A stretch of 64,000 bases of DNA, taken from assembly GCA_964481895.1 (NCBI GenBank), contig CAYZUL010000003.1, positions 9,294-73,293 on the forward strand, read 5' to 3'. This DNA comes from an uncultured Nitrospirota bacterium. GTDB lineage: Bacteria; Nitrospirota; Nitrospiria; JACRHA01. Of the stretch, positions 3,426 to 44,649 are shown one piece after another (within the stretch, counting starts at the first letter, position 1; each line of letters starts with the position of its first letter). The position numbers were made by a program, and so were the translations under genes. Under the pieces are notes generated by a model. That model ran no database searches. It saw only the letters and a program-made list of their open reading frames with translations, and was not told where the DNA came from.

Positions 3426-3447
3426 ATAAATAGAGGAGGATGTTCAA

Positions 3448-4850: not shown

Positions 4851-4924
4851 AGTCATGCTTGTTATTGAGTTTCGTTGGTTAGGAGAGGCGAGTTAAGAGC
4901 CAACCCATAACTTAGAAATGAGGG

Positions 4925-5305
4925 TTGTCAGAGATGGAAAAAAGGGTTCTGATAGTAGAAGATTCAACTGCAATGAGATCCATGATTGCCTCTACAGTGG
5001 AAGAGATGAAAGGATATGTAACCGTAGAGGCGGCAAACGGCTTTGAGGCCTTAAGAATCATACCAAAGGAAAGATTTGATCTGATTATAACTGATATAAA
5101 CATGCCCCATATAAATGGGCTTGAGATCATATCCTTCGTAAAGAATCATCCCTCCTTTAACTCTATCCCCATTATCATTGTTACCACTGAGCAGTCAGAG
5201 GAAGACAGGAAGAAGGGTATTTCCCTTGGGGCATCTGAATATGTCATAAAACCATTCAATCCGGATCATCTAAAAAAGGTAGTAAAGAAGGTATTGGGAG
5301 AATAG
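4925..5305 (+). CDS. cheY: CheY-like response regulator receiver protein
   Basis: 126 aa, single REC domain (VLIVEDS...DLIITDINMP...ASEYVIKPF). Confidence 0.85.
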   Translation: MSEMEKRVLIVEDSTAMRSMIASTVEEMKGYVTVEAANGFEALRIIPKERFDLIITDINMPHINGLEIISFVKNHPSFNSIPIIIVTTEQSEEDRKKGISLGASEYVIKPFNPDHLKKVVKKVLGE

Positions 5306-5314
5306 GGCGAATTC

Positions 5315-7330
5315 ATGGGGTCAGAGTCCTTAAGTTCTGTTATCGCTGAAGCAGAAGAGATAATCGACGGATTAAATCAGAATCTCTTGGCCATGGAGGC
5401 CTCTGATAAATCCAACGTAAAGCCGGATCTTCTGAATAGCGTCTTCAGGGCAGCACATACTTTGAAGGGTATTTCGGGTATGGCTGGGCTCAGGAAGGTT
5501 TCAGATCTGAGTCACAGGATGGAAGAACTCCTGGACGGCCTCCGTATGGGCCGCCTGAGACTTACTGGTAAACTCCTTGATACGCTCTTTGAATCAGTTG
5601 ACACTCTGAGAAGATTGCTGGAGATGGCAAGTTCCGGTTCAGGGGACGATATGGATATTACCCCTGTACTGAAAAAGATCGAGGCAGCGGCTTCCGGCGG
5701 GCCAGACACGGAGTCTTCTTCTGTCCCTGCCGGGGTTGAATTGAACCAGGACATCTATAAGGTACTTACCGAATATGAGACGCACAGGCTAAACGAAAAT
5801 ATAAAGTCAGGAATGGGCCTTTATGAGATTAAGGCGCGGTTCAAGTTTGAAAGCTTCGATAAGGATCTGGTTGACCTTAATAAAAAGCTGCAGGAAATAG
5901 GAGAGATAATTACAACGCTCCCGTCAACAGGGATGTCACCTGAATCGGGTATCGAATTTAACCTAATAATAGGCACTGGTAAGGATCATCTAAGCATACA
6001 GAATGCCCTTGATGGAGAATCTGTAGAGATCAGGAGGATAGGAGGAGGAAAAATAAAGGCGGCGCAGACAGAGAAGGACGAGGAGGCTCCTCCGCAGTCT
6101 ATCCGGGGAGATGCTACTGAATCTATCAAAAGCCTCGCAAAGACCATAAGGGTGGATATAGCAAAACTTGACAGCCTCCTGAATATGGTGGGCGAGCTGG
6201 TCCTTACAAAATCGGTAATCAGCCGTATCAGCAAGGATCTGCTCATGGAGGGGGAGAGGGCAATAGATGTATCAGAACTCCAGAAGGCATCCCAGGATCT
6301 TGACAGAAAGGTGAGCATGCTGCAAGGGGAACTGGTAGAGGCCAGGATGATCCCCATTGGTCAGGTCTTCGAAAGGCTGCTCAGGATCGTCAGGAAGATC
6401 TCTAAAGAACTAAACAAGGAGGTTACCCTCCTGATTTCAGGTGAAGAAACAAAACTGGACAAGTCTATGGTAGAGGAGATAGCCGATCCCCTTATGCACC
6501 TGGTCAGGAATGCAATCGATCACGGGATAGAGGGAAAGGAGGAGCGCCTCAATGGCGGAAAGCCTGAGGCCGGAACCATAAAATTGTCTGCTCAACAGAA
6601 AGGTAACAGCGTTGTTGTGGAGGTTGAGGATGACGGTTCAGGGGTTGACCTTTCAAAGGTATATAAGAAGGCCCTCGAGCGGGGATTATTAGAGGAAAGT
6701 AAGGAGTATGGCCAAAAAGAGCTTTTCAGTTTCTTATTCCTCCCGGGTTTTACTACAAAGGAGGAGGTCACAGATATCTCTGGAAGAGGAGTCGGCCTTG
6801 ATGTGGTGGCCAAAAACATAGGGAAGCTGGGCGGTATGGTGGATATGGACACAGAGCTTGGAAAAGGGACAAAATTCACCCTGACGCTCCCTATTACAAT
6901 GGTAATCATTAAGGCCCTGATAGTAAGCGTAGGGGAGGAGACTTTTGCCATACCCATAAATTCTGTCTCCGAATCGCTTATGATCAAAAAGGGCGATATC
7001 AGGACCGTGGAGAAACATGGTGTTATCCAACTCCGTGACCGAACCCTCTCACTCCTCTGGTTGAGGGAGATATTTGCTCTTCCCTCCAAAGAAGAGAGCG
7101 AAAGGATATATGTTATAGTTGTTGGGCTGGCTGAAAAGAGGCTGGGACTGATAGTTGATGCCATAGAAGGCCAGCAGGAGGTAGTTATTAAATCTATAGG
7201 GAAGATCCTGAAGGATATCCCCGGGATTGCAGGCGCAACGGAGTTGGGAAACAGAAAGACCATCCTTGTCCTTGATATAGGCGCCCTGATAGATGAAGCA
7301 ACCTCGGTATCTTCAAGGCCGGTCAAGTAA
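5315..7330 (+). CDS. cheA: chemotaxis histidine kinase CheA
   Basis: 671 aa. Hpt domain (AAHTLKGISGMAGL), dimerisation domain, HATPase_c (DDGSGVD...GRGVGLDVV) and C-terminal CheW-like domain. Confidence 0.9.
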   Translation: MGSESLSSVIAEAEEIIDGLNQNLLAMEASDKSNVKPDLLNSVFRAAHTLKGISGMAGLRKVSDLSHRMEELLDGLRMGRLRLTGKLLDTLFESVDTLRRLLEMASSGSGDDMDITPVLKKIEAAASGGPDTESSSVPAGVELNQDIYKVLTEYETHRLNENIKSGMGLYEIKARFKFESFDKDLVDLNKKLQEIGEIITTLPSTGMSPESGIEFNLIIGTGKDHLSIQNALDGESVEIRRIGGGKIKAAQTEKDEEAPPQSIRGDATESIKSLAKTIRVDIAKLDSLLNMVGELVLTKSVISRISKDLLMEGERAIDVSELQKASQDLDRKVSMLQGELVEARMIPIGQVFERLLRIVRKISKELNKEVTLLISGEETKLDKSMVEEIADPLMHLVRNAIDHGIEGKEERLNGGKPEAGTIKLSAQQKGNSVVVEVEDDGSGVDLSKVYKKALERGLLEESKEYGQKELFSFLFLPGFTTKEEVTDISGRGVGLDVVAKNIGKLGGMVDMDTELGKGTKFTLTLPITMVIIKALIVSVGEETFAIPINSVSESLMIKKGDIRTVEKHGVIQLRDRTLSLLWLREIFALPSKEESERIYVIVVGLAEKRLGLIVDAIEGQQEVVIKSIGKILKDIPGIAGATELGNRKTILVLDIGALIDEATSVSSRPVK

Positions 7331-14552: not shown

Positions 14553-14774
14553 AGGGGCTTGCGTCGCCCCCTCCACAGGCAAAGCCGAAGCGAGCATCCG
14601 GCTCGGCCGGTGCAAGCGCGGGGTGTGGGGGCATCGGAGGAGCCACTGCACCGGACAGGCCCCCACAGTTGATCGCCGCCTCCCCCTCAACGCTTGCCTG
14701 GCTCGCTGGATAGATCTAAAGGGTCTTGCGTCGCCTCGCCCCTACAACTCAACGCTCGCTTTGCTCGCTGGGGG
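14553..14774. repeat. GC-rich intergenic repeat, copy B (reverse orientation, with ~100-nt GC-rich insertion)
   Basis: AGGGGCTTGCGTCGCCCCCTCCAC...GCCTCCCCCTCAACGCTTGCCTGGCTCGCTGGATAGATCTAAAGGG is the reverse complement of copy A units. Confidence 0.8.
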
Positions 14775-21604: not shown

Positions 21605-21640
21605 AGGGGAGAGGAATAAGGAGAGGGGCGTTGTTTTTAC
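21580..21640 (+). terminator. Rho-independent terminator-like hairpin between convergent genes
   Basis: CCTCTCCCC-TTAGA-GGGGAGAGG perfect stem (21592-21614) inside a longer imperfect GC-rich IR, followed by TTGTTTTTA. Confidence 0.65.
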
Positions 21641-22020
21641 TAATCCTCGGCAAGGTGAATAATGATGTCCTTCTCGTTGATGAGCCATATATCCAGATCC
21701 GGGTCTCCATCTATGTTTCCTTCGGCCCTGGCTATAAACTTATTAGGATCTGAGATTGGCTCTATGATAATCTTGTAATATCTTAAGGGTTGCATAGGCG
21801 AGAATCCTATATCAGAGATGCTGCCGGAATAGCGGTCATGGTCTATATAATACATCCTTTCAAGTCTTACAATTTCTTTCAGGGCGATTTGAGCCTCTAT
21901 TCCCTTTGCCCGCTTTAGAAAATATTGATATATAGGGATGGCTATCCCCGTCAAAATAAGGGTGATTAAGAGCACGATTACCAGCTCTATAAGGGTAAAG
22001 CCCTTATCTTTTCTCTTCAT
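21640..22020 (-). CDS. pilE: type IV pilin-like protein (prepilin N-terminal methylation motif)
   Basis: MKRKDKG|FTLIELVIVLLI prepilin leader plus a hydrophobic helix. Start at ATG 22020 (the ORF is open to 22098). Confidence 0.7.
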   Translation of the reverse strand: MKRKDKGFTLIELVIVLLITLILTGIAIPIYQYFLKRAKGIEAQIALKEIVRLERMYYIDHDRYSGSISDIGFSPMQPLRYYKIIIEPISDPNKFIARAEGNIDGDPDLDIWLINEKDIIIHLAED

Positions 22021-22615
22021 TTTGATCTGATAACTCAAACTTATCCAGTATATTCCTGATCTCCTTATTCTTTTCGATAATCCCCTCCATTCTTTCAATC
22101 AACTCCTGCCTGCTGTTTAAACCTTCTAAACCATGTAAGTCCTTCAGTATCCCCGGGAGGTCTGCCCCCACATCCCTCTCCATCCTCTTTATATTCATCA
22201 TTGATTTGTCTATGTTTTCCAATAAGTGATTTAAAAGGTTGGCAAGCTCCTTCAGATCATCTCCTTTCCTGAGTCTGATCCTCACTGACAGGTCGCCGCC
22301 TATCACATCTTTAGCTGTCTTTTCAAACCTGTATATTGGGCCTGCAAGTTTATGGGTGACATAGACGCTTATAACGGCTAAAACAGAGATACTTATGGCA
22401 ATCGCAGGCCAGAGCCTTTCCCCTAAGATTATATACTGCATGGCTGCCTGTGCCTTTTCCTCAATGGGTGATCCGGAAATAAGGGTTATAGCCGGAGGTA
22501 TAAAGAGCGTCAGGACTATGAGGAATGTATATGCGATAAGCAGGATTGCGGTGAGGAATGCGTATCTCTTCTGGATAGGATGTATAAAAAACCTTCTACG
22601 CCTGAATGGACTCAA
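22004..22615 (-). CDS. membrane protein with two TM helices and a HAMP domain; no output domain
   Basis: 203 aa. HAMP-like LAGPIYRFEKTAKDVIGGDLSVRIRLRKGDDLKELANLLNHL, then a C-terminal coiled-coil. Confidence 0.6.
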   Translation of the reverse strand: MSPFRRRRFFIHPIQKRYAFLTAILLIAYTFLIVLTLFIPPAITLISGSPIEEKAQAAMQYIILGERLWPAIAISISVLAVISVYVTHKLAGPIYRFEKTAKDVIGGDLSVRIRLRKGDDLKELANLLNHLLENIDKSMMNIKRMERDVGADLPGILKDLHGLEGLNSRQELIERMEGIIEKNKEIRNILDKFELSDQNEEKR

Positions 22616-22624
22616 AGATGCCCC

Positions 22625-23641
22625 CTAAATTGCCATTAATTTTTTTCTTAACAATAAAATTTCCAGGGCAATAGACGCTGTCCATGCCAGCTTCTTAATG
22701 AAATCGATCTCGGAGATCCCCTTTCCAGACTTAATATTGTCCCCATATAAGATTGCCACGACCTGATCTTTTATTGTAAGGGGTATTGCAATTACCTCCT
22801 TTGGAAAGCGATCGTCAATCCTTTTCAGGAGGATCTGATTTCCCTGGGTAGCGATGAGCGGACCACTATAAGGTTCCTTGCTTTCTATAACATCAAGGAA
22901 GATCGACGGCTGGTCAAGCCTGATCTCAAGGCCTTCCAGCGCCTCCTTCTCAGTGTGAGGCGGATGTGCCCTCCAGCCTGATACAACCCCCTTCTTAACT
23001 ATAAACATTATAGCCCTGTCAAGGACAAGGCCTATATTCTTCATCAAGATCCCTATGATCTCCTCCCTCTCCTTTGTTTGAAGGAAATCCTCCTTTGCTG
23101 CCTTGAGATATGAATTAAGCTCTTCAGGGGTGGGTCTCTTCTTTTCAGTTACCTCCTCCTCTGTTAACCTCTTCCTTTCCTCATCAAGGATCGATATATA
23201 TCGCAATTTTCTGCTCACCTGATAATATTTCTCCAGTGCAAATTGTATCCTGGCCTCTGCGGCTATATATGTCTTAATAGAGCAGTTTGTCAAAAAGCCA
23301 ATCTCGTTTATAGCCTCAAAATCTGTCGGGTCCAGCATGGCAACATGCAGGGTATTCTTCTCTTTTCGCAGCGGGATTATATTAAATTTTCTGGCCAGAT
23401 CACGCGTAATGAGCCTTAATGCATCAGGATCTATCTGGTCAAAATCCTTGGGTCTTGCAAAGGGTATATTCAATCTTCTGCTTAAGAAGCCAGCAAGCCC
23501 CTCTTCGCTTAGATATCCAAGCTCTATAAGGTTTGTGCCGAGACGGCCGCCTACTGTAAGCTGTCTCTCAAGGACGTGGACAAGCTCTGCCTTTGTTATC
23601 AGGCCATCCTTAACAAGAAGATCCCCAAGTTTTTCAGTCAA
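22625..23641 (-). CDS. standalone MshEN (T2SSE_N-type c-di-GMP-binding) domain protein with C-terminal GAF-like domain
   Basis: KLGDLLVKDGLITKAELVHVLERQ and RLGTNLIELGYLSEEGLAGFLSRRL are tandem 24-aa MshEN motifs. The C-terminus is homologous to that of the 3699-4850 protein (AILYGDN). Confidence 0.65.
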   Translation of the reverse strand: MTEKLGDLLVKDGLITKAELVHVLERQLTVGGRLGTNLIELGYLSEEGLAGFLSRRLNIPFARPKDFDQIDPDALRLITRDLARKFNIIPLRKEKNTLHVAMLDPTDFEAINEIGFLTNCSIKTYIAAEARIQFALEKYYQVSRKLRYISILDEERKRLTEEEVTEKKRPTPEELNSYLKAAKEDFLQTKEREEIIGILMKNIGLVLDRAIMFIVKKGVVSGWRAHPPHTEKEALEGLEIRLDQPSIFLDVIESKEPYSGPLIATQGNQILLKRIDDRFPKEVIAIPLTIKDQVVAILYGDNIKSGKGISEIDFIKKLAWTASIALEILLLRKKLMAI

Positions 23642-23943
23642 TCCCCATCACCAGATTTATGCTTGCATTATGATCTGACCATTCGCCATGAATTTACTGT
23701 TAGGGCGCTACAATCTTGTGCCCTTGATTTGGGCACAGCTATAATAGATTGATATGTTTCCTCTTATCTCAGTTTCATTGTTAGTTTCGCCCCCCTCGCA
23801 TCGAATTCCTAAAAACATCCTCTATGGAGCCATGATTTTGCCATTATACCTCATCTCTGTTTCAGGCACAAAAATTTTATACCATACGACGGATGTTTTT
23901 TTCTAATTGTAGCAGTTATTTACCCATCTCGTTTATCCCTTGA

Positions 23944-24699
23944 CTAACTCTGAATATTAAAGATTTGCACAGCCTCCCCACCTGCCCCATCAGTTACAGA
24001 GACTACCACATAGACCTTACCCTTAAACGATGAGAAGATTTCCCATCTTATTAGTCCTGTTTCATGATCTATGGTCATTCCGTCAGGCGCTGATTTAAGG
24101 GAATATAAGAGCCTGTCTCTATCTGGATCTTCGGCCACGATCTGATAAGTAAAGCCGCTTTCATATTTGTAATCTCGAATAGACGAGGTTATTACCGGTT
24201 TCGCATTAAAGATATAGGCAAAGACCGTTATGGGCACGCCCTTTTCTTTTCCATCATCGGGGGTAACCGTAAGAGATATCTTATCACCCCGTTTAAGCTC
24301 AGTAGCTAAGGTATCTGAAGGCTCATTTAAGGGCCTTCCATCTATTGCCCATTGGTATGAAAGAGCTATATTATCACCGTCCCTGTTCTGGGTTAACACC
24401 TCGGCCCTTATCCTGTCGCCTTTTACAGGAGAAGATGGGGATAGTTTTATTGAGATGATTTCAGGACGGGCATTACTCTTCGGTTTCTCTACAGGCTGTT
24501 CTGGATCTATCACCGATATTTTATTTTGTTTAGTATCAATATCTATTTTCCTAGCCTCCCAGCTATAAGCAATAATACTGAGACCTATTAGGCTGCAAAG
24601 GGACAGCAAGAGGATCTTCCTTTGAAGATGCCGGCGAGGATCAGCAGCGTCAACATTCTTTTTCATCCTTTCTTGAATCTTATGTGCTAATAACATCAT
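23944..24699 (-). CDS. membrane-anchored protein with cadherin-like/Ig-like domain
   Basis: 251 aa. N-terminal TM helix. LLYSLKSAPDGMTIDHETGLIRW is typical of cadherin-like/putative Ig domains. Its start overlaps the pilY1-like stop by 4 nt (ATGA). Confidence 0.55.
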   Translation of the reverse strand: MMLLAHKIQERMKKNVDAADPRRHLQRKILLLSLCSLIGLSIIAYSWEARKIDIDTKQNKISVIDPEQPVEKPKSNARPEIISIKLSPSSPVKGDRIRAEVLTQNRDGDNIALSYQWAIDGRPLNEPSDTLATELKRGDKISLTVTPDDGKEKGVPITVFAYIFNAKPVITSSIRDYKYESGFTYQIVAEDPDRDRLLYSLKSAPDGMTIDHETGLIRWEIFSSFKGKVYVVVSVTDGAGGEAVQIFNIQS

Positions 24700-27600
24700 T
24701 TTTTAAGCCAGTGGACTATATTGGATATGATAGAATTTGCTGGTTGATTTTTAGCCTCTAATATAGCCCCTGATCCTATCTGAATCTTCTTCTCTAAGAT
24801 TTCCTGTCCCTCCTTTGGAGGTGGGATGATTATTGCCTCACCTGTTGGCGGGGCGCCAGGGCCTAACCTTACCCCTTTTTCAACAGTTACAGTGCCTGTG
24901 GTTATCCCTCCAGTTGCTTCCGGAGCAAGGATTGCCACATTTACTGGCGCAACCCCTGTAGTATAACCTAATGAAAAGAGAAAAGATTCACCTCCAGCAG
25001 AGCAGATATCTGCACTCGGCTTATATGTCAGGAAGTCTACAAGTCCGCCAACGGCAAGGGGCCTGGATATAACACGCTCAAGGGAAGAGAGCGTAATAAA
25101 CCAGCCATTCGTAGGTACTAATGCTGCCCCAGAAGTGGGAGAGATGGAGGTAACAACGGTCTTATTGCTAAAACTGTTGGTTGACGAATCATAGAGGCAT
25201 ATCTGGGTCGTCCCTGTAACTGTCCCAGTTGTAGATACACCTGTTCTGTCAGACAGACCAGTAGTTGTAAGTGGATAAGTTATACCTGAGGGCTTATCCA
25301 TAAGACCAAGGAAGATCTGGGTTGAGTTATCAACCTTATCCAGATCGCTATTAAACTTCCCTGAGCCTGCATAGACCCATATATTCCCATTGGCATCCTT
25401 GGCCGCATCAGGAGATGCGGTCAAGGGATAGTTATCTGAGAAGAGGTACTTGACACTTGGTGTCCATGGGGTGCTCAGATCCTGATTAGGTATGTCTATA
25501 GCCACGAGTTTCCCCTTCCAGCTTATTTTATTATACGCTGTTCCAAAGTAGATCTTCTCTGCTACATAATCCTTATCGGCATCTATTGCGAGGATATCGC
25601 TTACAATATGATTGTCGTCTGCGATTGTATCAGCATTGTCAAGGCTTATCTTCTTTGCAAGACTACCTGTTTTTAGATCGAGCATATAGATGTAACCTGT
25701 GCTAGTCCTGGCTATATCAGTAGCGCTCTTCGGGAGCTGTTTCGAGCCAGAGCCAAAGACCACATACCAGTTGCCATTCTGGGTATTATTTCCTGTCCTT
25801 ATGATTGAAGGATAGGTAGTGGCGTGACCGAGATCGGGATCAGAAAACTCCCAAAGGGAGACAGGGTTCTCAGGGTCTGTAATATCGATAGCGAAGTAGG
25901 ATGAGAACCCGACATTTGCAGGGGTCCCTGTTGGAGGTCCTGCTGGGTTTGCATCTGCCCCGGCACATGCGCCGCCAAACCTCATACCCCCGATCAGGAT
26001 GGTCTTCCAGCTACTCGATGTCCTGGTATCTGTAGGATTACCCTGAATACTGGCATCTACTAGCCTTACAGAGAGGTCGTTGTAATATATATGACAGTAG
26101 CTGGGGTCTGCAAGATATTTTAGATAGGGGAAGGCATTAAATGGGATATAGCCCCATACCTCCTCGCCAAGTTTGTCATTTTGAGTATCTGATGTACTGA
26201 AGAGATTCTTAAACAGGGCCTTAACACCCGAGGCCAAGGCTCCCAGGCTGTCATCCTTGTCCTTTAGATACCCGACCCTGAAGGCATGGAGTATCCCATC
26301 ATTTGCCCCAACAAAGGCTATGGCAGATCGCTGCTTATAGCTGCTGCTTGTAACATATTGATAATAGGTGCTGTCGGCATAGTCTATATGATAGGTATTT
26401 AGTGGCGTATTGGCAAAGACCTTTGGGGTGGAGTTTATGATGTCCCCAAGCTTCCACACCCTTAGACTCGTGCTTACAGTAACACGCCTGTCTCTATATG
26501 CTGAACTCACCGTGCTGCTGCAGGGATTATCGCCTATGATGCCTGTCTCAAGGCATTCACCCCTTATATACCTAACAATATTTTCAGCAGAATATGTAAC
26601 ATCCGGATTCAGGGCAGCGCTTAAGGCAGGATTGGTAGTTACATTCCCTACCGTGAAATCATTGGTCAGGAAGGTATTAGTAGTTGAGCTTCCTCTTTTT
26701 ACATCTTTTGATGTAAATATCCTTCGTGCAGAAGGGGCCATCAATGCAAGCTTCTTCCCTCCCTCCCAGAGGTAACTCACGTCTGAAAATGCCTTTATCT
26801 GAGGCGTTGAACATTGTGTCAGTGAGGAAGGAGTTCCATCATCACCACCATCTACATTTGTCGTAAATAGGGCACCTTTTGTTTCATTGTTTGCAGTATC
26901 AAAATATAATTTTAATACCTTGTCTTGTCCAAGATTGAGCCCAAAGTCATTGGTCGTATCCTCCCTCAGGTTGTCCTTCTGGTCTATCCAGAGATTCTGC
27001 AGATATCCGGTCCAGGTAACCTCCCTTACCCCTTCCTGCCTTGTAGGGAGAAAGTATGCCTGTACCATAGAACCTATCCCCCTCGAAGAGGTTGTAAGAA
27101 CAGAGACAGCCGTACCTGAGGCGGCACGCTTTAGGATATCTGCTATGGCATTGGTGATGCTTGCCTCAAGTTCATAGCCGTCGTCCCCTTCATAATATGT
27201 CAAAGGGAGATCAGAGGAATTAATAACACCATCTCCATTTGAATCCCGCAGATACTCTTTTAGATCCGGCCCTGGCTTCAAGTCACCATTTAGGTCATTA
27301 AACCCGCCGTTTATCGCAGCATCTTTTAATAGCTGAGATCCTTTTCCAAACATAAATACAGGGTATAGGATTATATTCTGGTTTCCTGTTAGGTCCGATC
27401 TGTTATCTACTGTCCTTGCCCACAAGGCCACATCGTCCAGATAGTCGGTCGCGTAAGAACTGCCGGAGGTCCCAGCCGGATCTTTGCTATCTGCGTCATA
27501 GTCACGTAAGCTTGTAGGAATGTTTGTATCCTGTGTCGCCTCTCCATCGGTCAACATCAGGATGAAGGACTTGGCGCAACGGACATATTGGTCAGACAGA

Positions 27601-29063
27601 CCCGATCCTGTCAGCTTGGAATACTGGTAATAATAGGGATCGTATAACGGACCAGTCTGGTAATCTGCGGGGGCATTTGAATAAGCTGGTGATTCTTGCC
27701 TGAAATATCTTACCGCCTCATAAAAGGTCTCAGCCAGGGGTGTCCATGTGGATGGGGACATATTCGAGATATGGGTAATCATATCAGTAGTAGAACCAAA
27801 ATCTACATAATTTTCTATATGCCCACCATCATATTTTCCGCCAACAGATCCCGATTCAATGCCGTTTCCCCTATTATAAAAGGACAAACCAAACCTGACG
27901 CCGCTGCTAAGTCTGTCCATGATACCCTCAGCCTTTTGCATCCCTTGATCTATAATGGTATTGTAAGGCCCGCCAGAGGGGGTGCTTGACGAGATAATAA
28001 GATAGACCTGTGTGGCGCGGGGAAAGACAGAGGCATAACTAGTATAGGCCTTAACTCCAAACCCCTGCAGACTTCCTATTCCAGAGGATTTAATATCATT
28101 CCAATCCCAGGCCACCCCTGTAGATGGATTGGTAGTCCAGCTGAAGTTATATGTAGTATAAGCATTTGAAATGTTTGAGAAGTTTGATGCGTAATCAGTG
28201 CCACTTATACGGATTACCCCTTGTATCCTCCTGGTCACGCTGCTGCTTGTGGCCTTTTTTGCAACCACCCTAACAGTCACACTTGTGATGGTGCCTAGTT
28301 TTGAACCTGTGTAATCGTAATCTAATATAACAGGGCTGACGGTATTGTTATTCTGGATATAGGTTGTGTCTCCATCTGATGTTGCCTCATTAACTGCGTC
28401 CCAAGCACTTGCTGCCCCTGTTACACTCCATCCAGCAGGGACACTTACATTAGCGTTTGGATAAGCATAAAAAGTCTGTGACCCAGGGTTAACCGGGCTT
28501 ATACTCAACTGGTCACCTGACATACTGTAACGGTAATCCCCTACAAATGGATAGATGATCCCTGGCACAGAGGAGTTATCAAGGTTCTTTTGAAAATCCC
28601 AGGACAAAGATGAATTTTCACCATAGAGCTTTACTGTGATAGCGCCCATTGGAGACCTCGGGGATGCCTTGCCGCCTATAAGGAGTTTTTTGGCGGCATC
28701 AATCCTGCGCGTGGTGGCCCAGTTCAGGAGGTTCCCGCTTGCAATAGGATTAGCCGCAGTCCCGCTTGTCATAGCCAAGGCGGTCACCTCCCACCGGCCA
28801 CTATTACTATAGATATAGTTTTTAGAAGGGTCAAAATAACCATAGTATGATCCACTTACAAACTGGGTCGGATCGTAAGATCCTGCATATGCCTGATCAT
28901 TCATACTCCCTGAGTTATCAAGAATAACGAGGACATTGGGTGGGATACTGCTGCTCACAAGGGGTGGAGTAGAACAATAGTCACCCATTGCGCCCCTTAC
29001 CGATGAAGGGACAAGCAGGAGAAAAAGAATGACAATCTTCAATATAATCTCTTGGTGTTTCAT
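24696..29063 (-). CDS. pilY1: PilY1-like type IV pilus tip adhesin (vWA domain + C-terminal PilY1 beta-propeller)
   Basis: ~1455 aa. Signal peptide, MIDAS VLVILDNSGSM, and a C-terminal region with PilY1-type propeller blades. Its position after pilX matches the Pseudomonas fimU-pilVWXY1 operon. Start at ATG 29063 with RBS AGAGGTGA. Confidence 0.75.
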   Translation of the reverse strand: MKHQEIILKIVILFLLLVPSSVRGAMGDYCSTPPLVSSSIPPNVLVILDNSGSMNDQAYAGSYDPTQFVSGSYYGYFDPSKNYIYSNSGRWEVTALAMTSGTAANPIASGNLLNWATTRRIDAAKKLLIGGKASPRSPMGAITVKLYGENSSLSWDFQKNLDNSSVPGIIYPFVGDYRYSMSGDQLSISPVNPGSQTFYAYPNANVSVPAGWSVTGAASAWDAVNEATSDGDTTYIQNNNTVSPVILDYDYTGSKLGTITSVTVRVVAKKATSSSVTRRIQGVIRISGTDYASNFSNISNAYTTYNFSWTTNPSTGVAWDWNDIKSSGIGSLQGFGVKAYTSYASVFPRATQVYLIISSSTPSGGPYNTIIDQGMQKAEGIMDRLSSGVRFGLSFYNRGNGIESGSVGGKYDGGHIENYVDFGSTTDMITHISNMSPSTWTPLAETFYEAVRYFRQESPAYSNAPADYQTGPLYDPYYYQYSKLTGSGLSDQYVRCAKSFILMLTDGEATQDTNIPTSLRDYDADSKDPAGTSGSSYATDYLDDVALWARTVDNRSDLTGNQNIILYPVFMFGKGSQLLKDAAINGGFNDLNGDLKPGPDLKEYLRDSNGDGVINSSDLPLTYYEGDDGYELEASITNAIADILKRAASGTAVSVLTTSSRGIGSMVQAYFLPTRQEGVREVTWTGYLQNLWIDQKDNLREDTTNDFGLNLGQDKVLKLYFDTANNETKGALFTTNVDGGDDGTPSSLTQCSTPQIKAFSDVSYLWEGGKKLALMAPSARRIFTSKDVKRGSSTTNTFLTNDFTVGNVTTNPALSAALNPDVTYSAENIVRYIRGECLETGIIGDNPCSSTVSSAYRDRRVTVSTSLRVWKLGDIINSTPKVFANTPLNTYHIDYADSTYYQYVTSSSYKQRSAIAFVGANDGILHAFRVGYLKDKDDSLGALASGVKALFKNLFSTSDTQNDKLGEEVWGYIPFNAFPYLKYLADPSYCHIYYNDLSVRLVDASIQGNPTDTRTSSSWKTILIGGMRFGGACAGADANPAGPPTGTPANVGFSSYFAIDITDPENPVSLWEFSDPDLGHATTYPSIIRTGNNTQNGNWYVVFGSGSKQLPKSATDIARTSTGYIYMLDLKTGSLAKKISLDNADTIADDNHIVSDILAIDADKDYVAEKIYFGTAYNKISWKGKLVAIDIPNQDLSTPWTPSVKYLFSDNYPLTASPDAAKDANGNIWVYAGSGKFNSDLDKVDNSTQIFLGLMDKPSGITYPLTTTGLSDRTGVSTTGTVTGTTQICLYDSSTNSFSNKTVVTSISPTSGAALVPTNGWFITLSSLERVISRPLAVGGLVDFLTYKPSADICSAGGESFLFSLGYTTGVAPVNVAILAPEATGGITTGTVTVEKGVRLGPGAPPTGEAIIIPPPKEGQEILEKKIQIGSGAILEAKNQPANSIISNIVHWLKK

Positions 29064-29102
29064 ATATTCACCTCTCTTTTTACCTTTGTTTTCCATCATA
29101 TA

Positions 29103-29417
29103 CTATTGCGGAATTGGATCCGGGTATTCCATTATTAACCTGATCATAGGCCCATTCTTTGTATATTCGTATTCAAATTCAACCCTGGTGGGGAGTGAGA
29201 GTTTGTGCAGGGAGACAGCCTTTCCTTCGCGATCCAGGATCCGGGCTGATGGATCTATCCAGTAGCCTTTATCATCAATCATAACTGCCCCATCCTCCTC
29301 GACAAGGTTGAGTATACCATCGGCCCTTACCTTGCCGGCGGCAATTGCCAGACTGCAAGCCATATATACCATGATTACTCCAAGTGCTAACCTAAAGAAT
29401 ATCTTCTTATGTCTCAT
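29103..29417 (-). CDS. small secreted protein of unknown function (signal peptide)
   Basis: 104 aa. MRHKKIFFRLALGVIMVYMACSLAIAAG signal peptide. Located between the pilX-like and pilY1-like genes. Confidence 0.45.
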   Translation of the reverse strand: MRHKKIFFRLALGVIMVYMACSLAIAAGKVRADGILNLVEEDGAVMIDDKGYWIDPSARILDREGKAVSLHKLSLPTRVEFEYEYTKNGPMIRLIMEYPDPIPQ

Positions 29418-29454
29418 CTTTTACCTCCTTAACTCCACCTTATCTACTTTTATC

Positions 29455-29937
29455 TTACCCGGTATACCTGTAGAGGGCGGAGTTCTCTGCCCTTGCATTA
29501 TTAGGGCCTGTAACCATTGTGGTGATCCTATAAAATACAGCAGTGCTTGGCACCCCCGCAGACCTTGCAAATTCAAGCCTTCCACCGGGTAGGTCTCTCG
29601 TATATAACCTCTCAAACGTAACAGTAGCAACATAGTTTCCTACGGCGCCTGGCAGGGTAATGGTGCCGCTACAGGGGGAGTTTTGATTTAAAACCCCATT
29701 AGAAATACAAATAGCCGATAATCTAGCAGTAACTGGTTCGCCAAGCATGGTCAGGTTTATGGTGTCTTTTACTATCTCTATGGCCCCATCCGCTGCCTCT
29801 TCGGCAGTTGCATATCTCTTGGCCGCCCCTGACATAGTCGTGGACTGTTCTACGAGATATAAAACCCCGGTCACCATGATAAATATAACTGCGCTTATTA
29901 TTAAGGCTATAATAAGGGCAGCGCCCCTCTCATTCAT
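29455..29937 (-). CDS. pilX: PilX-like minor pilin
   Basis: MNERGAALIIALIISAVIFIM matches the PilX N-terminal domain. Start at ATG 29937 (the ORF is open to 29979). Confidence 0.65.
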   Translation of the reverse strand: MNERGAALIIALIISAVIFIMVTGVLYLVEQSTTMSGAAKRYATAEEAADGAIEIVKDTINLTMLGEPVTARLSAICISNGVLNQNSPCSGTITLPGAVGNYVATVTFERLYTRDLPGGRLEFARSAGVPSTAVFYRITTMVTGPNNARAENSALYRYTG

Positions 29938-31013
29938 CTCATATTCCTTGGAGTTATATTTAATGATATCACTCTCCATCTGAACCTCCTTTGTTCTGCA
30001 GTAAGGGGTACATCCCTCCCGATAGTAAGGCTAGTATCCCCAACCCGGATACTCGCCAGTGGGTTTGTATAATCCGGGTCTTGTTTGCCTAATTGCACAA
30101 GTAGATATACCCTCACCTGTTTTAACCGTTTATTCAGAGTCTTTGCGTCATATCCTCCTGCGAGTACACCGCCATTATCCCAGAAATCTATTGCCCCATT
30201 CTCATCTGTATCAAGGCCGAAGGCGACCTGGAGGTCCAAAACACAGTTGAGAAGGGGTTCACCACCAGCAGGCGCAACTGTTGTCCTGCTCTCGGCCCTT
30301 AAAAGATTCTGGGTCCCCGTGGCACAGGTAGATGGAAGGGTAGAAGGAACTGTATCGCCCAGGGAATATCTGACGGCATAGAAGGGCTGAGTAGCCTGCG
30401 GATCTGCAGCATCCTGAAGTCCATACAGCAGGTTTCCTAAGGCCGGGTTTGCGAAAGCAATACTACCCACCCGTGTATTGATATTACAACATGCCCCTGT
30501 AAATACATACAACCATTGCCACACCCCTGCCACCTGCTGTGCAAGGAGCTTCTTTGTGCTAGGCTCTATCACTACGACCCTGTCGCCAATACCCAGATCC
30601 TCCCTTGCATCACCCCATGTCCTGAAGGTGGGGGTTGTATTTGCCATATATGTCCATTCCTGTGCCTGCCTTGATCCCATTCCAAGTGCCGTCCCCATAA
30701 GGGTTATGGTATCTGGAGCGACACTACTATTAGTTGCACTAACAGCCGTGGGGGAGAAATCCTGATCACCATCACCATCGTAATCATAGTCTTCTGCAAG
30801 GCCATAACCTGCCATGGTGATCTCCCTTTCCATAATACCCTTTGCTATCCCTAGCTCCATATCGGCCTCGGCTATCTTATATTCTCTGCCCATATGTTTC
30901 ACCTGGGTGGTATAGGCAACATAGATACCTGAAAGGATTATGAAGGATATGGCCAGGGACACGAGGATTTCTATCAGAGTGATTCCCCTAATATCTGTTA
31001 TATTAGATCTCAT
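29934..31013 (-). CDS. pilW: PilW-like minor pilin
   Basis: 359 aa. Prepilin motif RGITLIEILVSLAI. Confidence 0.7.
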   Translation of the reverse strand: MRSNITDIRGITLIEILVSLAISFIILSGIYVAYTTQVKHMGREYKIAEADMELGIAKGIMEREITMAGYGLAEDYDYDGDGDQDFSPTAVSATNSSVAPDTITLMGTALGMGSRQAQEWTYMANTTPTFRTWGDAREDLGIGDRVVVIEPSTKKLLAQQVAGVWQWLYVFTGACCNINTRVGSIAFANPALGNLLYGLQDAADPQATQPFYAVRYSLGDTVPSTLPSTCATGTQNLLRAESRTTVAPAGGEPLLNCVLDLQVAFGLDTDENGAIDFWDNGGVLAGGYDAKTLNKRLKQVRVYLLVQLGKQDPDYTNPLASIRVGDTSLTIGRDVPLTAEQRRFRWRVISLNITPRNMR

Positions 31014-31014
31014 C

Positions 31015-31539
31015 TTATGTTTTCCTGTGTTTATATATTACCGTGTTGTTTGAATACAGCTGTCCGCGATAGGTGAATAGGACAGCAATCTGTATTTCCC
31101 TTAGGTCATTTGTTAGCGTTGTTACATTCCAAGTAACATTATAGGTCTGTGTAAACCCCCTTATGGTCTGAATGGGATTTGGGTATTGTCGAAAATCAGG
31201 TGTTAGTGCTGCGTTGGTACTGTCATAAGGTGATAGTCCACTAAGGCCATTAACAATATTATCGAACGGCTGTGCAAGGATTATCTCTGCTACCTGAGTA
31301 GTGATTCTTATGCCTGAGTTCCTGATTTCATTTCGGCTGTTTATATCCATGGACTTGGTGGTAAGGCTTAAAAACCCGAGGATAGAAATTAAAAGGATAA
31401 CATCAGCTATCATCATCTCCAGGAGGGAAAAACCACTATCATTGGAAAGGAGATAGAGGGTAGTATGCTTGATACCCCCGTCTCCTTTACCCTCTATTCT
31501 TTGCCTACTATATTTATGATATGCTGCAATTAACCCCAT
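31015..31539 (-). CDS. pilV: PilV-like minor pilin (start uncertain)
   Basis: GFSLLEMMIADVILLISILG prepilin-type cleavage/methylation motif. No good alternative start lies closer to the motif, so the leader length is uncertain. Confidence 0.6.
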   Translation of the reverse strand: MGLIAAYHKYSRQRIEGKGDGGIKHTTLYLLSNDSGFSLLEMMIADVILLISILGFLSLTTKSMDINSRNEIRNSGIRITTQVAEIILAQPFDNIVNGLSGLSPYDSTNAALTPDFRQYPNPIQTIRGFTQTYNVTWNVTTLTNDLREIQIAVLFTYRGQLYSNNTVIYKHRKT

Positions 31540-32053
31540 CCCATGTCCCCTCTCTTATCCTGACAGGGTTTACCATAACACACCTTACCTCGGCAACCCC
31601 TGCCAGCCTCAAGACATATGTCTTGCCTATTTGACCCCAATTAGTATCCCTTGCCATCCCTCTTTTATCATATATCAGGACATCATTTGTCGGATCTGCT
31701 GCGTTACCTATTGTTACAGTTAAGAATGCTGGGAGGTTCGTAGACCGCACTCCCGCCTCCTCTCCGGTATTATCGTAGACAAAATCACTACTGATGAACT
31801 CAAAGGTTGTATAAGAGTTGTTTGACGCAAACCTTATACCAAACCCTCTACTATTTGCCGCCGAGCCTCTGGTCATTGCATCCTGCCTGATCCTTTGAAG
31901 ATCACCGAGAAGCCCCCTTGAGGCAGCGGTTAACCGATGTCTTTGAATAAAGCCAGTACCCATGGTGGCCATTGCCACAGCTATCCCTATTATAGCCACT
32001 ACAACCATAAGCTCAGTTAGTGAATAACCCTTCTTATTAGTTATGTATCGCAT
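31514..32053 (-). CDS. fimU: FimT/FimU (GspH)-like minor pilin
   Basis: MRYITNKKG|YSLTELMVVVAIIGIAVAMA. Start at ATG 32053 gives a 9-aa leader (the ORF is open to the TTG at 32083). Confidence 0.7.
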   Translation of the reverse strand: MRYITNKKGYSLTELMVVVAIIGIAVAMATMGTGFIQRHRLTAASRGLLGDLQRIRQDAMTRGSAANSRGFGIRFASNNSYTTFEFISSDFVYDNTGEEAGVRSTNLPAFLTVTIGNAADPTNDVLIYDKRGMARDTNWGQIGKTYVLRLAGVAEVRCVMVNPVRIREGTWDGVNCSIS

Positions 32054-32321
32054 ACTTGCCTTCTTTTGCAATAAAGATGCCAATTATTTTATAATAGAAT
32101 CCTCATAGTTTATAATGAATTATAGTGTAGAAAAGAAGAAATACAAGTAATTAAAGTATGAAATATAAGGGTAGCACTATGTAATTGATTACATAGTTTA
32201 AGGGGTAGGTTAGTCCCAGTAAAAAGGGTTTACTTTTCCTTTTGGGGATAGTATAATTTAGATAACATTATTATTAAATTATAAATAATTCTGCAGATTT
32301 ATATCATCATCGGAGGGATTT

Positions 32322-34898: not shown

Positions 34899-34994
34899 TC
34901 GTAGGGGGCAGGGCTTGCCATGCTCAGCGAGCAAAGCGAGCGTTGAGGGGGAGGCGACGATCATCTGTCGGTGGAGGGGGCGACGCAAGCCCCT
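34899..34994. repeat. GC-rich intergenic repeat, copy C (forward orientation, single unit)
   Basis: CAGCGAGCAAAGCGAGCGTTGAGGGGGAGGCGACGATCATCTGTCGGTGGAGGGGGCGACGCAAGCCCCT. It ends immediately before the ispD RBS, as copy A does before purS. Confidence 0.8.
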
Positions 34995-35731: not shown

Positions 35732-36241
35732 ATGATAAGGACAGGCATAGGATATGATGTTCATCGTTTCTGCAAGGGAAGAAGGCTGGTCTTGGGCGGC
35801 ATTGAAATTCCTTTTGCGGAAGGACTTGCCGGTCATTCAGATGCAGATGTCCTGCTCCATGCCATGTGCGATGCAATGCTTGGCGCAATAGGGGAGGGGG
35901 ATATCGGTCAGCACTTCCCGGATCATGACATGCGATTCAAGGGCATTTCAAGCATGAGACTCCTTGAGGACGTGGCAGGGCTGCTAAAAAGAAAGGGATT
36001 TATATTGCTTAATATCGATTCGACAATAATCGCTGAAAGACCCAGGGTATCGGGCTTTGTCATGGGGATGAGGGAGAATATGGCAGGCTTACTGGGACTC
36101 GATATAGGGTGTGTAAATATAAAGGCGACAACGAACGAGGGCCTTGGTTTTATCGGAAGAGGAGAAGGGATTGCTGCCCAGGCAGTCTGCACAGTAAGAA
36201 AGGTAGACTCTACTGATGATGCGGATCCTTCTTTGATTTAG
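35732..36241 (+). CDS. ispF: 2-C-methyl-D-erythritol 2,4-cyclodiphosphate synthase
   Basis: 169 aa. RTGIGYDVHRF...HSDADVLLHA signature. Confidence 0.9.
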   Translation: MIRTGIGYDVHRFCKGRRLVLGGIEIPFAEGLAGHSDADVLLHAMCDAMLGAIGEGDIGQHFPDHDMRFKGISSMRLLEDVAGLLKRKGFILLNIDSTIIAERPRVSGFVMGMRENMAGLLGLDIGCVNIKATTNEGLGFIGRGEGIAAQAVCTVRKVDSTDDADPSLI

Positions 36242-36998
36242 ACCTCAATTGGGCATTCTCAAGGGCTACCGATGCATAGTGGGCAAATACGGAGAGGAGT
36301 TCCAGGTCATATTCCGTAAAGGCATGCCTCTCATTGCTAAAACAAGAGCAGTTAAGAACCCCGATCACCTTAACGCCTAAGCTCAAAGGGACACAAAGGG
36401 AAGAGAAAATATCGGCCTCCTTATCGATAAAATTGATAAAGCGGCCCCCCTTTACCTTGCCTGGCAGGATTATTGGTTCTCCTGTTTTGGCTACCCAGCC
36501 TGCTACACCCTCACCGATCTTCTGGGGTTTGAAGAATTTTTCCTCCAGGCCTGATGATGCTGCAACAATAAGGGTTTCACCCTTTTCATCAATAAGCATG
36601 ATTGAACTTCTGCTTATTTTAAACAATTCGAGAACGGATTTTAAAAGCTTATCCAGCGCCTTATGGGGTTCCTTTTCCAGGCTCACCGCTTCAACGGCCT
36701 TATGGAGAGTTGAGATCTCCTTGAGCTTTGTGTTCAGCAGTGATATTGTAACCTCCTGTTCTAATGTCTGGAGCTCTTCAATCCTCAATTGCCGGTTTAA
36801 TTCCATCAGTCTCCGTTCTTTGTCGACCACATATGAGCAGAAGAGGAAAGAAAAGATCCCCAGGAAGATGAGGAAAGTGCTTTTGCTTTCCAGAAAATAG
36901 GACAGGGCTATTACTGAGGTAGAGTAGACGGCTATTACCAGGATGGCGATAATCCAGAGTTCACGCCGCCTTTTTTCTATATCATTCCGTTTCATCAC
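36210..36998 (-). CDS. membrane-anchored GAF domain protein
   Basis: 262 aa. Two TM helices, a coiled-coil and a GAF domain (GEGVAGWVAKTGEPIIL). Confidence 0.65.
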   Translation of the reverse strand: MMKRNDIEKRRRELWIIAILVIAVYSTSVIALSYFLESKSTFLIFLGIFSFLFCSYVVDKERRLMELNRQLRIEELQTLEQEVTISLLNTKLKEISTLHKAVEAVSLEKEPHKALDKLLKSVLELFKISRSSIMLIDEKGETLIVAASSGLEEKFFKPQKIGEGVAGWVAKTGEPIILPGKVKGGRFINFIDKEADIFSSLCVPLSLGVKVIGVLNCSCFSNERHAFTEYDLELLSVFAHYASVALENAQLRSKSKKDPHHQ

Positions 36999-41080: not shown

Positions 41081-41095
41081 TTAGATACCATTCCT

Positions 41096-41233
41096 AGGGG
41101 CTTGCGTCGCCCCCTCCACCGGCCAGGCCGGATGGAGCCTCCCCCTCAACGCTCGCAACGCTCGCTGGGTTGATACCCACTTGCAGGGGCTTTAGTCGCC
41201 CCCTACAACTCAATGCTTACTTTGCCCGCTTGG
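41096..41233. repeat. GC-rich intergenic repeat, copy D (reverse orientation)
   Basis: AGGGGCTTGCGTCGCCCCCTCCACC...GCCTCCCCCTCAACGCTCGCAACGCTCGCTGGG...GGGGCTTTAGTCGCCCCCTACAACTCAATGC, between the topA stop and the xerC start. Confidence 0.8.
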
Positions 41234-43545: not shown

Positions 43546-44649
43546 TTATCTTTTAATATACATGTTTCCGTCAAGCTTCCGGACTGCGCCCTTTAGTTCC
43601 AGGCCCAATAAGATTGTTGAGACCCTGGATGAGGGAAGACCGCTGCCAAAGGTAATTTCATCTATATGTCTTGGTTCATATGACATAAGGTTACGGATTA
43701 ATTCTTCCTCTCCTGAAAGATTGTGTCTTTCTTCTTTATTTAACATGTCAACTTCCCTTTTGGCAAGTTGAGGTATCAACTCTTCAAGTATATCATCTAT
43801 ATTCTCTACAAGCTTTGCACCCTTTTTTATCAGACCGTTTGTGCCGCTGCTATTCCTTGAATTGATATTCCCGGGGATTGCAAAGACCTCCCGCCCATGT
43901 TCAAGGGCGGCATTGGCTGTTATCAATGAGCCGCTGTCATTGGATGCCTCTATAACGAGCACCCCTGCCGAGATCCCGCTTATGATCCGGTTCCTCTTGG
44001 GGAAGTTTATCCTCTCCGGCGGGGTCCCTGGCTCAAATTCGGATATTATTGCGCCATTTTCAACGATCTTGCCAGCCAACTCCCTGTTGTCGGGGGGATA
44101 TAATATATCAATGCCCGACCCCAAAACCGCTATAGTCCTCCCTCCTGCTGTCATCGCCCCCTGATGCGCAAAGGTGTCTATCCCCCTCGCCATTCCGCTT
44201 ACAATCGTATAACCATAAGATACCAATTCACTGCTTAACCTTTCCGTTATCGTCCTTCCGTAAGTTGTCGCATTTCTGGCGCCTACTATTGCTATGGCGT
44301 TTTCATCCTCTTTTGTTATTTCTCCTTTAATGTATAATATCGGCGGCGGATCATAGATCTTCCTGAGCCTTTCCGGATAGACGCTGTTATTCAGGGTTAT
44401 AACAGTTATACCTAACCTTTCTATCTCATCGATCTCATCCACTATCTTTTTATCAGGCTTAAACCTAACTATATTGTTTGCCAGGGAACTGCCTATGCCT
44501 TCCACCTTTAATAATTCAGAGAGGCCTGCAGATAGGGCGCATTCCGGAGACCCGAAGGTCTCAATAAGCCTTTTAAAATTGACATTCCCAATACCCGGAA
44601 CGGATCTTAAGGCAAGCCAGTAATATATATCTTCTTTCGCTGATCCCAT
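43546..44649 (-). CDS. dprA: DNA processing protein DprA (Smf)
   Basis: 367 aa. Rossmann-like DprA domain (IVSGMARGIDTFAHQGA). dprA-topA synteny. Confidence 0.85.
   Translation of the reverse strand: MGSAKEDIYYWLALRSVPGIGNVNFKRLIETFGSPECALSAGLSELLKVEGIGSSLANNIVRFKPDKKIVDEIDEIERLGITVITLNNSVYPERLRKIYDPPPILYIKGEITKEDENAIAIVGARNATTYGRTITERLSSELVSYGYTIVSGMARGIDTFAHQGAMTAGGRTIAVLGSGIDILYPPDNRELAGKIVENGAIISEFEPGTPPERINFPKRNRIISGISAGVLVIEASNDSGSLITANAALEHGREVFAIPGNINSRNSSGTNGLIKKGAKLVENIDDILEELIPQLAKREVDMLNKEERHNLSGEEELIRNLMSYEPRHIDEITFGSGLPSSRVSTILLGLELKGAVRKLDGNMYIKR

Follow-up and report, generated by a model that had tools for sequence, protein, structure and literature searches.

The DNA considered here is a stretch of 64,000 nucleotides (nt) from an uncultured Nitrospirota bacterium (Nitrospiria, JACRHA01; assembly GCA_964481895.1, contig CAYZUL010000003.1, positions 9,294 to 73,293 of the forward strand), referred to below as the window, and the system in question is a set of ten co-directional genes, g1 to g10, which runs along its minus strand from 32053 to 21640. 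This region very likely encodes the tip and priming module of a type IVa pilus, with an exchangeable cassette, g1-g7, upstream of a constant trio, g8-g10. The core of such a system is known. The new elements are a PilY2-like protein family outside Pseudomonadota, a putative immunoglobulin (Ig)-like partner of PilY1, and the swap of the cassette upstream of a trio that includes a predicted cyclic di-GMP (c-di-GMP) receptor and a pilin.

The minor-pilin and PilY1 cassette

An earlier note, made from the sequence alone, had proposed a fimU-pilV-pilW-pilX-pilY1-type operon in this region. The proposal holds, as all ten open reading frames (ORFs) lie where it had placed them, prepilin cleavage sites are present, and the PilW and PilY1 models pass their thresholds. 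The gene order is four minor pilins, a 104-amino-acid (aa) secreted protein, PilY1, a bitopic Ig-like protein, an MshEN/GAF-like protein, a HAMP-like protein with transmembrane (TM) segments and a PilA-like pilin, and the full ORF span is 21640-32083 (-). The features are listed below in window coordinates, with a slash marking the prepilin cleavage site.

31514-32053 (-), g1: FimU/GspH-like minor pilin, G/YSLTE; the ORF opens with TTG at 32083 and the likely start is ATG 32053
31015-31539 (-), g2: PilV-like minor pilin, G/FSLLE; 35-aa leader if ATG 31539 is the start
29934-31013 (-), g3: PilW minor pilin, G/ITLIE; PF16074
29455-29937 (-), g4: PilX/GspK-like minor pilin without E5, G/AALII; likely start ATG 29937, overlapping the pilW stop as ATGA
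29103-29417 (-), g5: PilY2-like periplasmic small beta-barrel between pilX and pilY1; signal peptide and a domain of about 70 aa resembling the oligonucleotide/oligosaccharide-binding (OB) fold
24696-29099 (-), g6: PilY1 tip adhesin; likely start ATG 29063; Sec signal, split vWA domain with MIDAS (metal-ion-dependent adhesion site), C-terminal beta-propeller
23944-24699 (-), g7: bitopic membrane protein, Ig-like at its C-terminus (He_PIG/Big_9); ATGA overlap with pilY1
23843-23871 (-): promoter-like TTGTGC-17 nt-TATAAT in the g7-g8 gap, read from the sequence
22625-23641 (-), g8: cytoplasmic stand-alone MshEN protein with a GAF-like C-terminal domain and no ATPase domain; 338 aa, predicted c-di-GMP receptor
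22004-22615 (-), g9: small membrane protein without an output domain; two TM segments, HAMP-like domain, C-terminal tail of about 65 aa
21640-22020 (-), g10: short PilA/PilE-class pilin; likely start ATG 22020, 126-aa precursor, G/FTLIE, no cysteines

The ATGA start/stop overlaps were read directly at pilW/pilX (29937-29934) and at pilY1/g7 (24699-24696), the latter being the coupling of pilY1 to the membrane-protein gene that had been described before. The remaining junctions from g2 to g6 have a spacing of 3 to 39 nt, g8 and g9 are 9 nt apart, and g9 overlaps g10 by 17 nt; the sole gap in the set, of 302 nt (23642-23943), separates g7 from g8. This gene order is not due to chance, since it recurs in dozens of loci. 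The synteny sample comprised 77 species-representative loci fetched via PilY1, plus further loci obtained by exact look-up (designated below by L and a number). Apart from the architecture of the window (A, 4 pilins-g5-pilY1(-g7)), three others recur in relatives, namely g5-pilY1-4 pilins(-g7) (B), pilY1-4 pilins-g7 (C) and 4 pilins-pilY1-g5 (D). A tandem pair of cassettes, pilY1-4 pilins-g7 followed by 4 pilins-(g5)-pilY1, was found in L001/L009 (1-4823 and 6885-14338), L002 and L026; the second cassette of L026 has no g5, and a PIN/MazE toxin-antitoxin pair sits between the two cassettes of L009.

Class III signal peptides with G-1 and E+5 are present in g1 (KKG/YSLTE), g2 (DSG/FSLLE), g3 (IRG/ITLIE) and g10 (KDKG/FTLIE), and the site of g4 (ERG/AALII) is without E5, as in GspK/PilX-type proteins, so that the claim of prepilin peptidase sites in the pilin-like genes is upheld. 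The g3 protein matched PilW (PF16074) with 32.7 bits against a gathering score of 26, along with N_methyl (4.8e-5). The FimU, PilV and PilX models were matched by N-terminal parts of the window proteins and under their curated cutoffs. For g1, the N-terminal part alone matched N_methyl (7e-7) and GspH TIGR01708 (1.6e-8); g2 matched PilV TIGR02523 at 1.2e-6, under its cutoff, and N_methyl at 2.5e-4; g4 reached 19.5 bits with PilX_N, below the cutoff of 25.5, and 7.8e-6 with GspK NF037980. Among 18 positional orthologues, GspH PF12019 was matched by five of those of g1 and PilX_N by six of those of g4. In profile searches of PDB sequences, the FimU-like g1 retrieved the N-terminal pilin helix only, and the PilX-like g4 gave no match. 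The position of the genes and these weak family matches suggest the FimU, PilV and PilX identities of g1, g2 and g4. A Verru_Chthon identity of the cassette was rejected, as the matches were confined to N-terminal parts. The leader of g2 (31434-31539, -) has 35 aa, compared with 7-14 aa in the other pilins of the window, and ATG 31539 is the only in-frame canonical start before its cleavage site. Since this leader is far longer than the others, a non-canonical start may be used.

The PilY1 protein has 1455 or 1467 aa depending on the start, the shorter form beginning at ATG 29063, where a Shine-Dalgarno-like sequence is present. The propeller model PF05567 was matched with 48.9 bits against a cutoff of 28.1, and a profile of 18 homologues found only P. 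aeruginosa (Pseudomonas aeruginosa) PilY1 (3HX6, E 4e-36) in the PDB. The loop DADKDYVAE (D1173-E1181) aligns with the P. aeruginosa calcium loop, and the pattern Dx[DN]x[DN]xxx[DE] is kept in most of the 18 homologues; judged by its residues, the calcium-binding loop of the C-terminal propeller is retained. The N-terminal region has a vWA fold with the MIDAS motifs DNSGS (aa 61-65) and TDG (aa 517-519), and residues D61, S63, S65, T517 and D518 show no variation among 18 and among 44 homologues, in agreement with the earlier description of a protein of about 1455 aa with an N-terminal vWA MIDAS. A large beta-rich insertion at roughly residues 150-400 splits the vWA domain. PilY1 proteins with vWA/MIDAS are known from Legionella, Pseudomonas and, as PilY1.3, Myxococcus xanthus (M. 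xanthus) (PMC13190605), and the vWA/MIDAS part of the window PilY1 is therefore ordinary. At least 581 homologues were found, chiefly in metagenome-assembled genomes (MAGs) of Nitrospirota (Thermodesulfovibrionales, Nitrospiraceae) and Desulfobacterota. In the Desulfuromonadales loci L015 (9920-14986) and L036 (3571-8712), PilY1 is longer (1688-1713 aa) and no g5 or g7 gene is adjacent; Ig-like repeats in the N-terminal half of these proteins give weak matches to the g7 family hidden Markov model (HMM; E 3e-6 to 1.5e-4).

The PilY2-like barrel and the Ig-like membrane protein

The 104-aa product of g5 had been described as a secreted protein between pilX and pilY1, and its N-terminal hydrophobic signal segment confirms this. 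No Pfam or NCBIfam model matched it, and its public names are only 'hypothetical protein'. The structure model reached a predicted local distance difference test score (pLDDT) of about 90 over residues 30-100, and in Foldseek the top template modelling (TM) scores, 0.66-0.69, were obtained with PilY2 (PA4555, PDB 3TDQ), at an E-value of 1.5e-2, which is comparable to those of CusF and cold-shock proteins. Identity between g5 and PilY2 amounts to 18-20%, in the structural alignment alone; a search of PDB sequences with the g5 family profile (E <= 10) did not find 3tdq, and sequence homology to PilY2 was thus undetected at this level.

The genomic position of the family is very regular. None of its 37 matches is more than 58 bp away from pilY1, and all share its strand; 31 lie upstream, 5 downstream and 1 is overlapped by an ORF call, and g5 is present in 31 of the 57 evaluable loci. 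Moreover, a family member found by the profile alone, independently of PilY1, stands in the order 4 pilins-pilY1-g5, which is the Pseudomonas arrangement, and the order of pilY1 followed by a small gene was seen in L045, L060, L072, L076 and L088-L090. A full HMMER scan of 1.84 billion representative proteins yielded 314 relatives of g5; the narrower searches returned 4 near-identical matches (word-indexed) and 21 matches (alignment-based). Among the best 150 of the 314 relatives, 91 have no more than 162 aa and the rest are multi-repeat proteins of Pfam family DUF5666, while no g5-family member by itself reaches the DUF5666 model. Therefore, g5 is a PilY2-like, PilY1-linked periplasmic barrel, and we consider its homology to PilY2 probable. 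As its best structural match is PilY2 and it behaves as a PilY1-linked gene, pilY2 would be relocated and not replaced. This departs from the earlier view that pilY2 and pilE had been replaced, since a PilY2-like gene is present upstream of pilY1 and a PilA/PilE-class pilin is still the last gene. Two other ideas about g5 were discarded: it is not a lipoprotein, having no lipobox and no conserved cysteine, and no fusion of it was found in the longer PilY1 proteins that have no separate g5.

The g7 protein has one hydrophobic, presumably membrane-spanning segment near aa 25-48, and its residues 166-250 match He_PIG (30.8 bits against 24) and Big_9 (27.2 against 23.6). Cadherin_5 came up in one g7 homologue, as a weak precomputed match. 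The term Ig-like is therefore preferable to the cadherin-like of the earlier note, whose assignment to the membrane stands. Of the 79 unique loci, 34 contain a member of this family, which in each case shares the strand of the cassette and forms its 3' end; it stands immediately behind pilY1 or, if pilY1 precedes the four pilins, behind those. When the count is restricted to the 43 loci whose sequence extends 5.5 kb or more downstream of pilY1, the figure is 25. These counts were obtained with a family HMM built from ORFs of at most 450 aa only. The searchable literature holds no description of an Ig-like membrane partner of PilY1. The extra genes, called non-canonical in the earlier note, are no idiosyncratic insertions; by the neighbourhood counts (31/57 loci for g5, 34/79 for g7), those for the PilY2-like and the Ig-like protein recur in cassettes of this type in Nitrospirota, Desulfobacterota and others.

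Cassette exchange upstream of a constant trio

Loci L084, L085 and L086 were reached via proteins with 90% identity or more to g8. On both sides of the cassette, L084 runs collinear with the window (92-95% identity). Its left flank is 94.9% identical to window positions 34968-31983, the match stopping about 70 nt into g1, near codon 24, and its right flank is 85% identical to 23642-20106, the match beginning at the g8 start codon, with g8-g9-g10 kept. Between these flanks the window carries 8.34 kb (23643-31982, comprising g1-g7 and the gap), and L084 carries an unrelated segment of 6.36 kb that encodes two pilins together with a pilin of 1134 aa that has Big_1/invasin-like repeats, and a PilX_N protein of 601 aa; PilY1, g5 and g7 are absent from this cassette. 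L085 and L086 have a similar alternative cassette and the kept trio, and L086 shares the downstream flank of the window; in L085 the upstream flank differs and the downstream one is short. The trio is thus kept in three close relatives, two of which occupy the same chromosomal locus as the window. In L083, at 86% identity, a PilY1-type cassette is followed by g8. Because the trio is kept while g1-g7 is swapped at the same locus, g1-g7 can be described as an exchangeable tip cassette and g8-g10 as a constant module. The earlier note had counted the trio as part of a pilY1 operon variant; it is better seen as a module of its own, which stays when another cassette takes the place of the PilY1 one. 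The alternative cassettes lie at 4667-9927 in L084, 5196-9888 in L085 and 1821-6573 in L086, with giant pilin-like proteins of 1121-1145 aa (Big_1/invasin- or fn3-like repeats) and PilX_N proteins of 420-601 aa. Their products appear to be modular minor pilins that replace PilY1 as adhesin.

The first protein of the trio, g8, matched MshEN with 71 bits (6.6e-20) and the c-di-GMP motif model NF053729 with 55.7 bits against a cutoff of 38; among PDB sequences it matched PilF (1e-37), PilB (7e-25) and MshE-N (5HTL, 1.5e-17). Both 24-aa MshEN motifs, as defined in PMC12943098, are present (KLGDLLVKDGLITKAELVHVLERQ and RLGTNLIELGYLSEEGLAGFLSRR) and are joined by the 5-aa spacer LTVGG, the deviations being K and not R as the first residue and R and not Q as the last residue of motif 2. 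GAF_2 was sub-threshold in three of three g8 homologues (best E 9.7e-4). MshEN proteins also follow pilY1 in L018, L080 and L083. A stand-alone GAF-domain protein (262 aa, GAF 5e-19) is encoded at 36210-36998 (-), 4 kb from the operon. In g9, which has two hydrophobic segments, the HAMP region aligns to that of many sensor kinases; the gene is conserved along with g8 and g10 in L084-L087, and L057 shows a parallel arrangement, with a small TM-HAMP gene and a pilin straight after pilY1. A HAMP-like match in L033 proved unrelated to g9. The last protein, g10, matched N_methyl (1.8e-8), PilA_Myxo with its N-terminal part (1.2e-17) and, weakly, ComP_DUS, and its best PDB match was the M. xanthus major pilin PilA (8tj2, E 2e-12, aa 8-82). 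Given this match, g10 is a PilA/PilE-class pilin for which the earlier term PilE-like is not separable from major pilin. The promoter-like site in the g7-g8 gap is kept in the 86%-identity relative L083 although the rest of the gap has diverged, which suggests that g8-g10 probably have their own promoter. A c-di-GMP riboswitch in this gap was rejected, as there was no Rfam match there.

Proposed function, alternatives and comparison with known systems

From the gene content, folds, motifs, synteny and cassette swap observed here, we infer the protein-protein contacts, the binding of c-di-GMP and the roles of g5, g7, g8 and g9 as follows. A prepilin peptidase encoded elsewhere would cleave the four minor pilins, which would form a membrane-embedded priming complex and prime assembly. 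The PilX-like subunit would carry PilY1, which would reach the pilus tip and bind targets through its N-terminal vWA/MIDAS domain. The g5 barrel, translated just before PilY1, would most likely aid the folding or stability of PilY1 or its loading onto the minor pilins, and g7, anchored in the inner membrane and translationally coupled to PilY1, would most likely contact PilY1 or the priming complex in the periplasm; for an action of both on PilY1 or the priming complex, periplasmic TfcP of M. xanthus provides an analogy (PMC8833165). The g8 protein may sense c-di-GMP and, with the g9 HAMP protein, tune pilus production or use, so that the g8-g10 trio would most likely couple the c-di-GMP level to pilus production or use. 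A wider proposal, in which g5 and g7 are unrecognised, widespread partners of PilY1 (e.g., a periplasmic chaperone and an inner-membrane dock for the tip complex), the trio is gated by c-di-GMP and serves interchangeable tip cassettes, and related strains swap g1-g7 as a unit to alter pilus adhesion, is tentative and, in our view, rather unlikely as a whole.

Several results weigh against the interpretation as a type IVa priming and tip module with a regulatory trio. No pilB, pilC, pilD, pilM-Q or pilT gene was found in the 64-kb window. The g5 gene is absent from 26 of 57 evaluable loci and g7 from 18 of 43 (about 40%), and neither can therefore be essential for PilY1 in general. The MshEN part of the MshEN-GAF protein described earlier stands, and its GAF part is sub-threshold (GAF_3, E 0.009, 16.9 bits against 27); likewise, the HAMP-only protein can be called HAMP-like, with two TM segments, on a PF00672 score of 19.6 bits, below the cutoff of 25. 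Finally, the promoter-like site at 23843-23871 failed a consensus scan, and promoter and terminator scans of the region gave no better results than shuffled sequence.

Three other explanations were considered. The g5 protein may be a generic periplasmic OB-fold or DUF5666-like protein, e.g., a small binding module, that became linked to pilY1 independently and is no homologue or equivalent of PilY2. The Foldseek E-values of CusF and cold-shock proteins, similar to that of PilY2, the multi-repeat DUF5666 proteins matched by the g5 profile and the failure of the PDB-sequence profile search to find 3tdq are in line with this; however, the size of g5, its signal peptide and its strict adjacency to pilY1, including the Pseudomonas order of pilY1 and then a small gene, fit PilY2, and the DUF5666 model is unreached by any lone family member. 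This explanation is possible, although we regard it as the less likely one. As to the pilins, g1-g4 could be pseudopilins of a type II secretion system (GspH-I-J-K) or belong to another type IV filament, e.g., a competence pilus, instead of a motility or adhesion type IVa pilus. The best NCBIfam matches of g1 and g4 are indeed GspH and GspK, with N-terminal parts only, g10 matches ComP_DUS weakly, dprA lies within the window (43546-44649), and genes of the pilus machinery are missing nearby. Nevertheless, GspHIJK and FimU-PilVWX are homologous sets, and cross-matches of g1 and g4 to Gsp models are therefore to be expected, whereas PilW and the propeller of PilY1, itself a type IVa pilus component, pass their thresholds. 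In relatives, pilD and pilS/pilR-like genes or a PilB-like ATPase adjoin similar cassettes, and a role in DNA uptake would remain a function of a type IVa pilus. A secretion or competence origin of g1-g4 is accordingly highly improbable.

The remaining explanation concerns the trio, whose MshEN, HAMP and pilin genes may be an unrelated neighbouring operon with no functional tie to the minor-pilin/PilY1 cassette. The gap of 302 nt between g7 and g8 with its conserved promoter-like site, the persistence of the trio through the exchange of the upstream cassette, and the lack of g8 and g9 in most PilY1 loci all fit such a separation. However, in four of four close relatives the trio stands directly behind a four-gene minor-pilin cassette of either type, its last gene encodes a pilin, and MshEN is the N-terminal domain of pilus ATPases. 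MshEN proteins are likewise found behind pilY1 in the more distant L018 and L080, and L057 has its small TM-HAMP gene and pilin right after pilY1. An accidental neighbourhood is thus unlikely, and the interpretation of the region as a tip cassette joined to a constant trio is retained.

The closest known counterpart is the P. aeruginosa operon fimU-pilV-pilW-pilX-pilY1-pilY2-pilE, in which four minor pilins also come first and apparently in the same order, PilY1 has a vWA/MIDAS N-terminus and a Ca-binding-type C-terminal propeller, a small secreted PilY2-type protein is encoded, and a PilA/PilE-class pilin closes the 3' end. In the window, however, the PilY2-like gene lies upstream of pilY1 and its product is only 18-20% identical to PilY2, by structural alignment alone; Ig-like, MshEN/GAF-like and TM-HAMP genes stand between pilY1 and the last pilin, and g8-g10 are probably served by a promoter of their own. 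The minor pilin/PilY1 clusters of M. xanthus likewise offer alternative sets with different N-terminal adhesin domains, including the vWFA domain of PilY1.3, and in cluster 1 PilY1.1 depends for its function on TfcP, a small accessory protein of the periplasm (PMC7541494, PMC8833165, PMC13190605). TfcP is a cytochrome c, whereas g5 is an OB-like barrel, and an Ig-like membrane partner is not described there. Furthermore, the alternatives reported here are seen as allelic replacements at one locus across related genomes and, within the window, not as paralogous clusters in one genome. The vWA module of Streptococcus sanguinis PilB is grafted onto a pilin, unlike that of the window, which belongs to the non-pilin PilY1 and contains a beta-rich insertion; nor is it carried by a sortase-assembled subunit, in contrast to the Gram-positive and type V tip adhesins PitA, RrgA, SpaC, GBS104 and Mfa5. 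With the MshEN domains of MshE, PilB and PilF, e.g., Vibrio cholerae MshE (5HTL, E 1.5e-17), g8 shares two 24-residue motifs, a 5-residue spacer and the following MshEN_C subdomain, but it is a stand-alone MshEN and GAF-like protein of 338 aa without an ATPase domain, encoded together with a TM-HAMP protein and a pilin.

The surroundings of the ten genes are of a housekeeping character, with htrA, a PIN-TRAM gene and ispDF on one side and an MprF-like gene, a Reg_prop protein, cdaA, folP and ftsH on the other, and the window DNA outside the cassette is 92-95% identical to a groundwater 'Nitrospirae bacterium' MAG (GCA_016234185.1). At 3699-7330 (+), 14 kb from the operon, a DUF4388 (PATAN-type) protein, a CheA histidine kinase and a small PAS protein are encoded in this order, and might supply pilus-based motility with a chemosensory signal. 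An intergenic repeat of about 60-80 bp, rich in GC and hairpin-forming, with the core GGAGGGGGCGACGCAAGCCCCT, occurs at 3281-3433, 14553-14771, 34925-34994 and 41095-41156, in two or three copies at some of the four sites, as well as in the MAG locus L084, and looks like a repetitive extragenic palindrome (REP). The low-GC island at 55036-63634 (-) (GC 0.40, against about 0.46 elsewhere) resembles a defence island and contains a split SNF2/PLD-type helicase, DUF3800, a 968-aa protein with a RelA/SpoT nucleotidyltransferase region and an Eco57I-type methylase. At 58247-58341 (+), the DUF3800-V RNA motif of Rfam was recognised with 71.4 bits (gathering score 37.4); it borders on the 3' end of the DUF3800 protein gene that is encoded on the opposite strand at 58341-58973 (-).

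Summing up, the basic picture of type IVa pili is unchanged by these findings, and their significance lies in the accessory proteins and in the exchange of the cassette. In P. aeruginosa, PilY2 still counts as poorly characterised (bioRxiv 10.64898/2026.09.03.749161), and there is disagreement between sources as to a requirement for it in piliation (PMC10191384). Should the fold match of g5 be due to homology, a PilY2-like family without annotation is tied to pilY1 in Nitrospirota, Desulfobacterota and further phyla, which would constitute comparative evidence for PilY2 as a real partner of PilY1 and would supply many sequences for co-evolution and co-folding tests. The Ig-like g7 is a further candidate accessory protein. 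The swap, in which the locus stays fixed and the trio downstream constant, offers a clear example from nature of how pilus tips diversify in uncultured groundwater bacteria.

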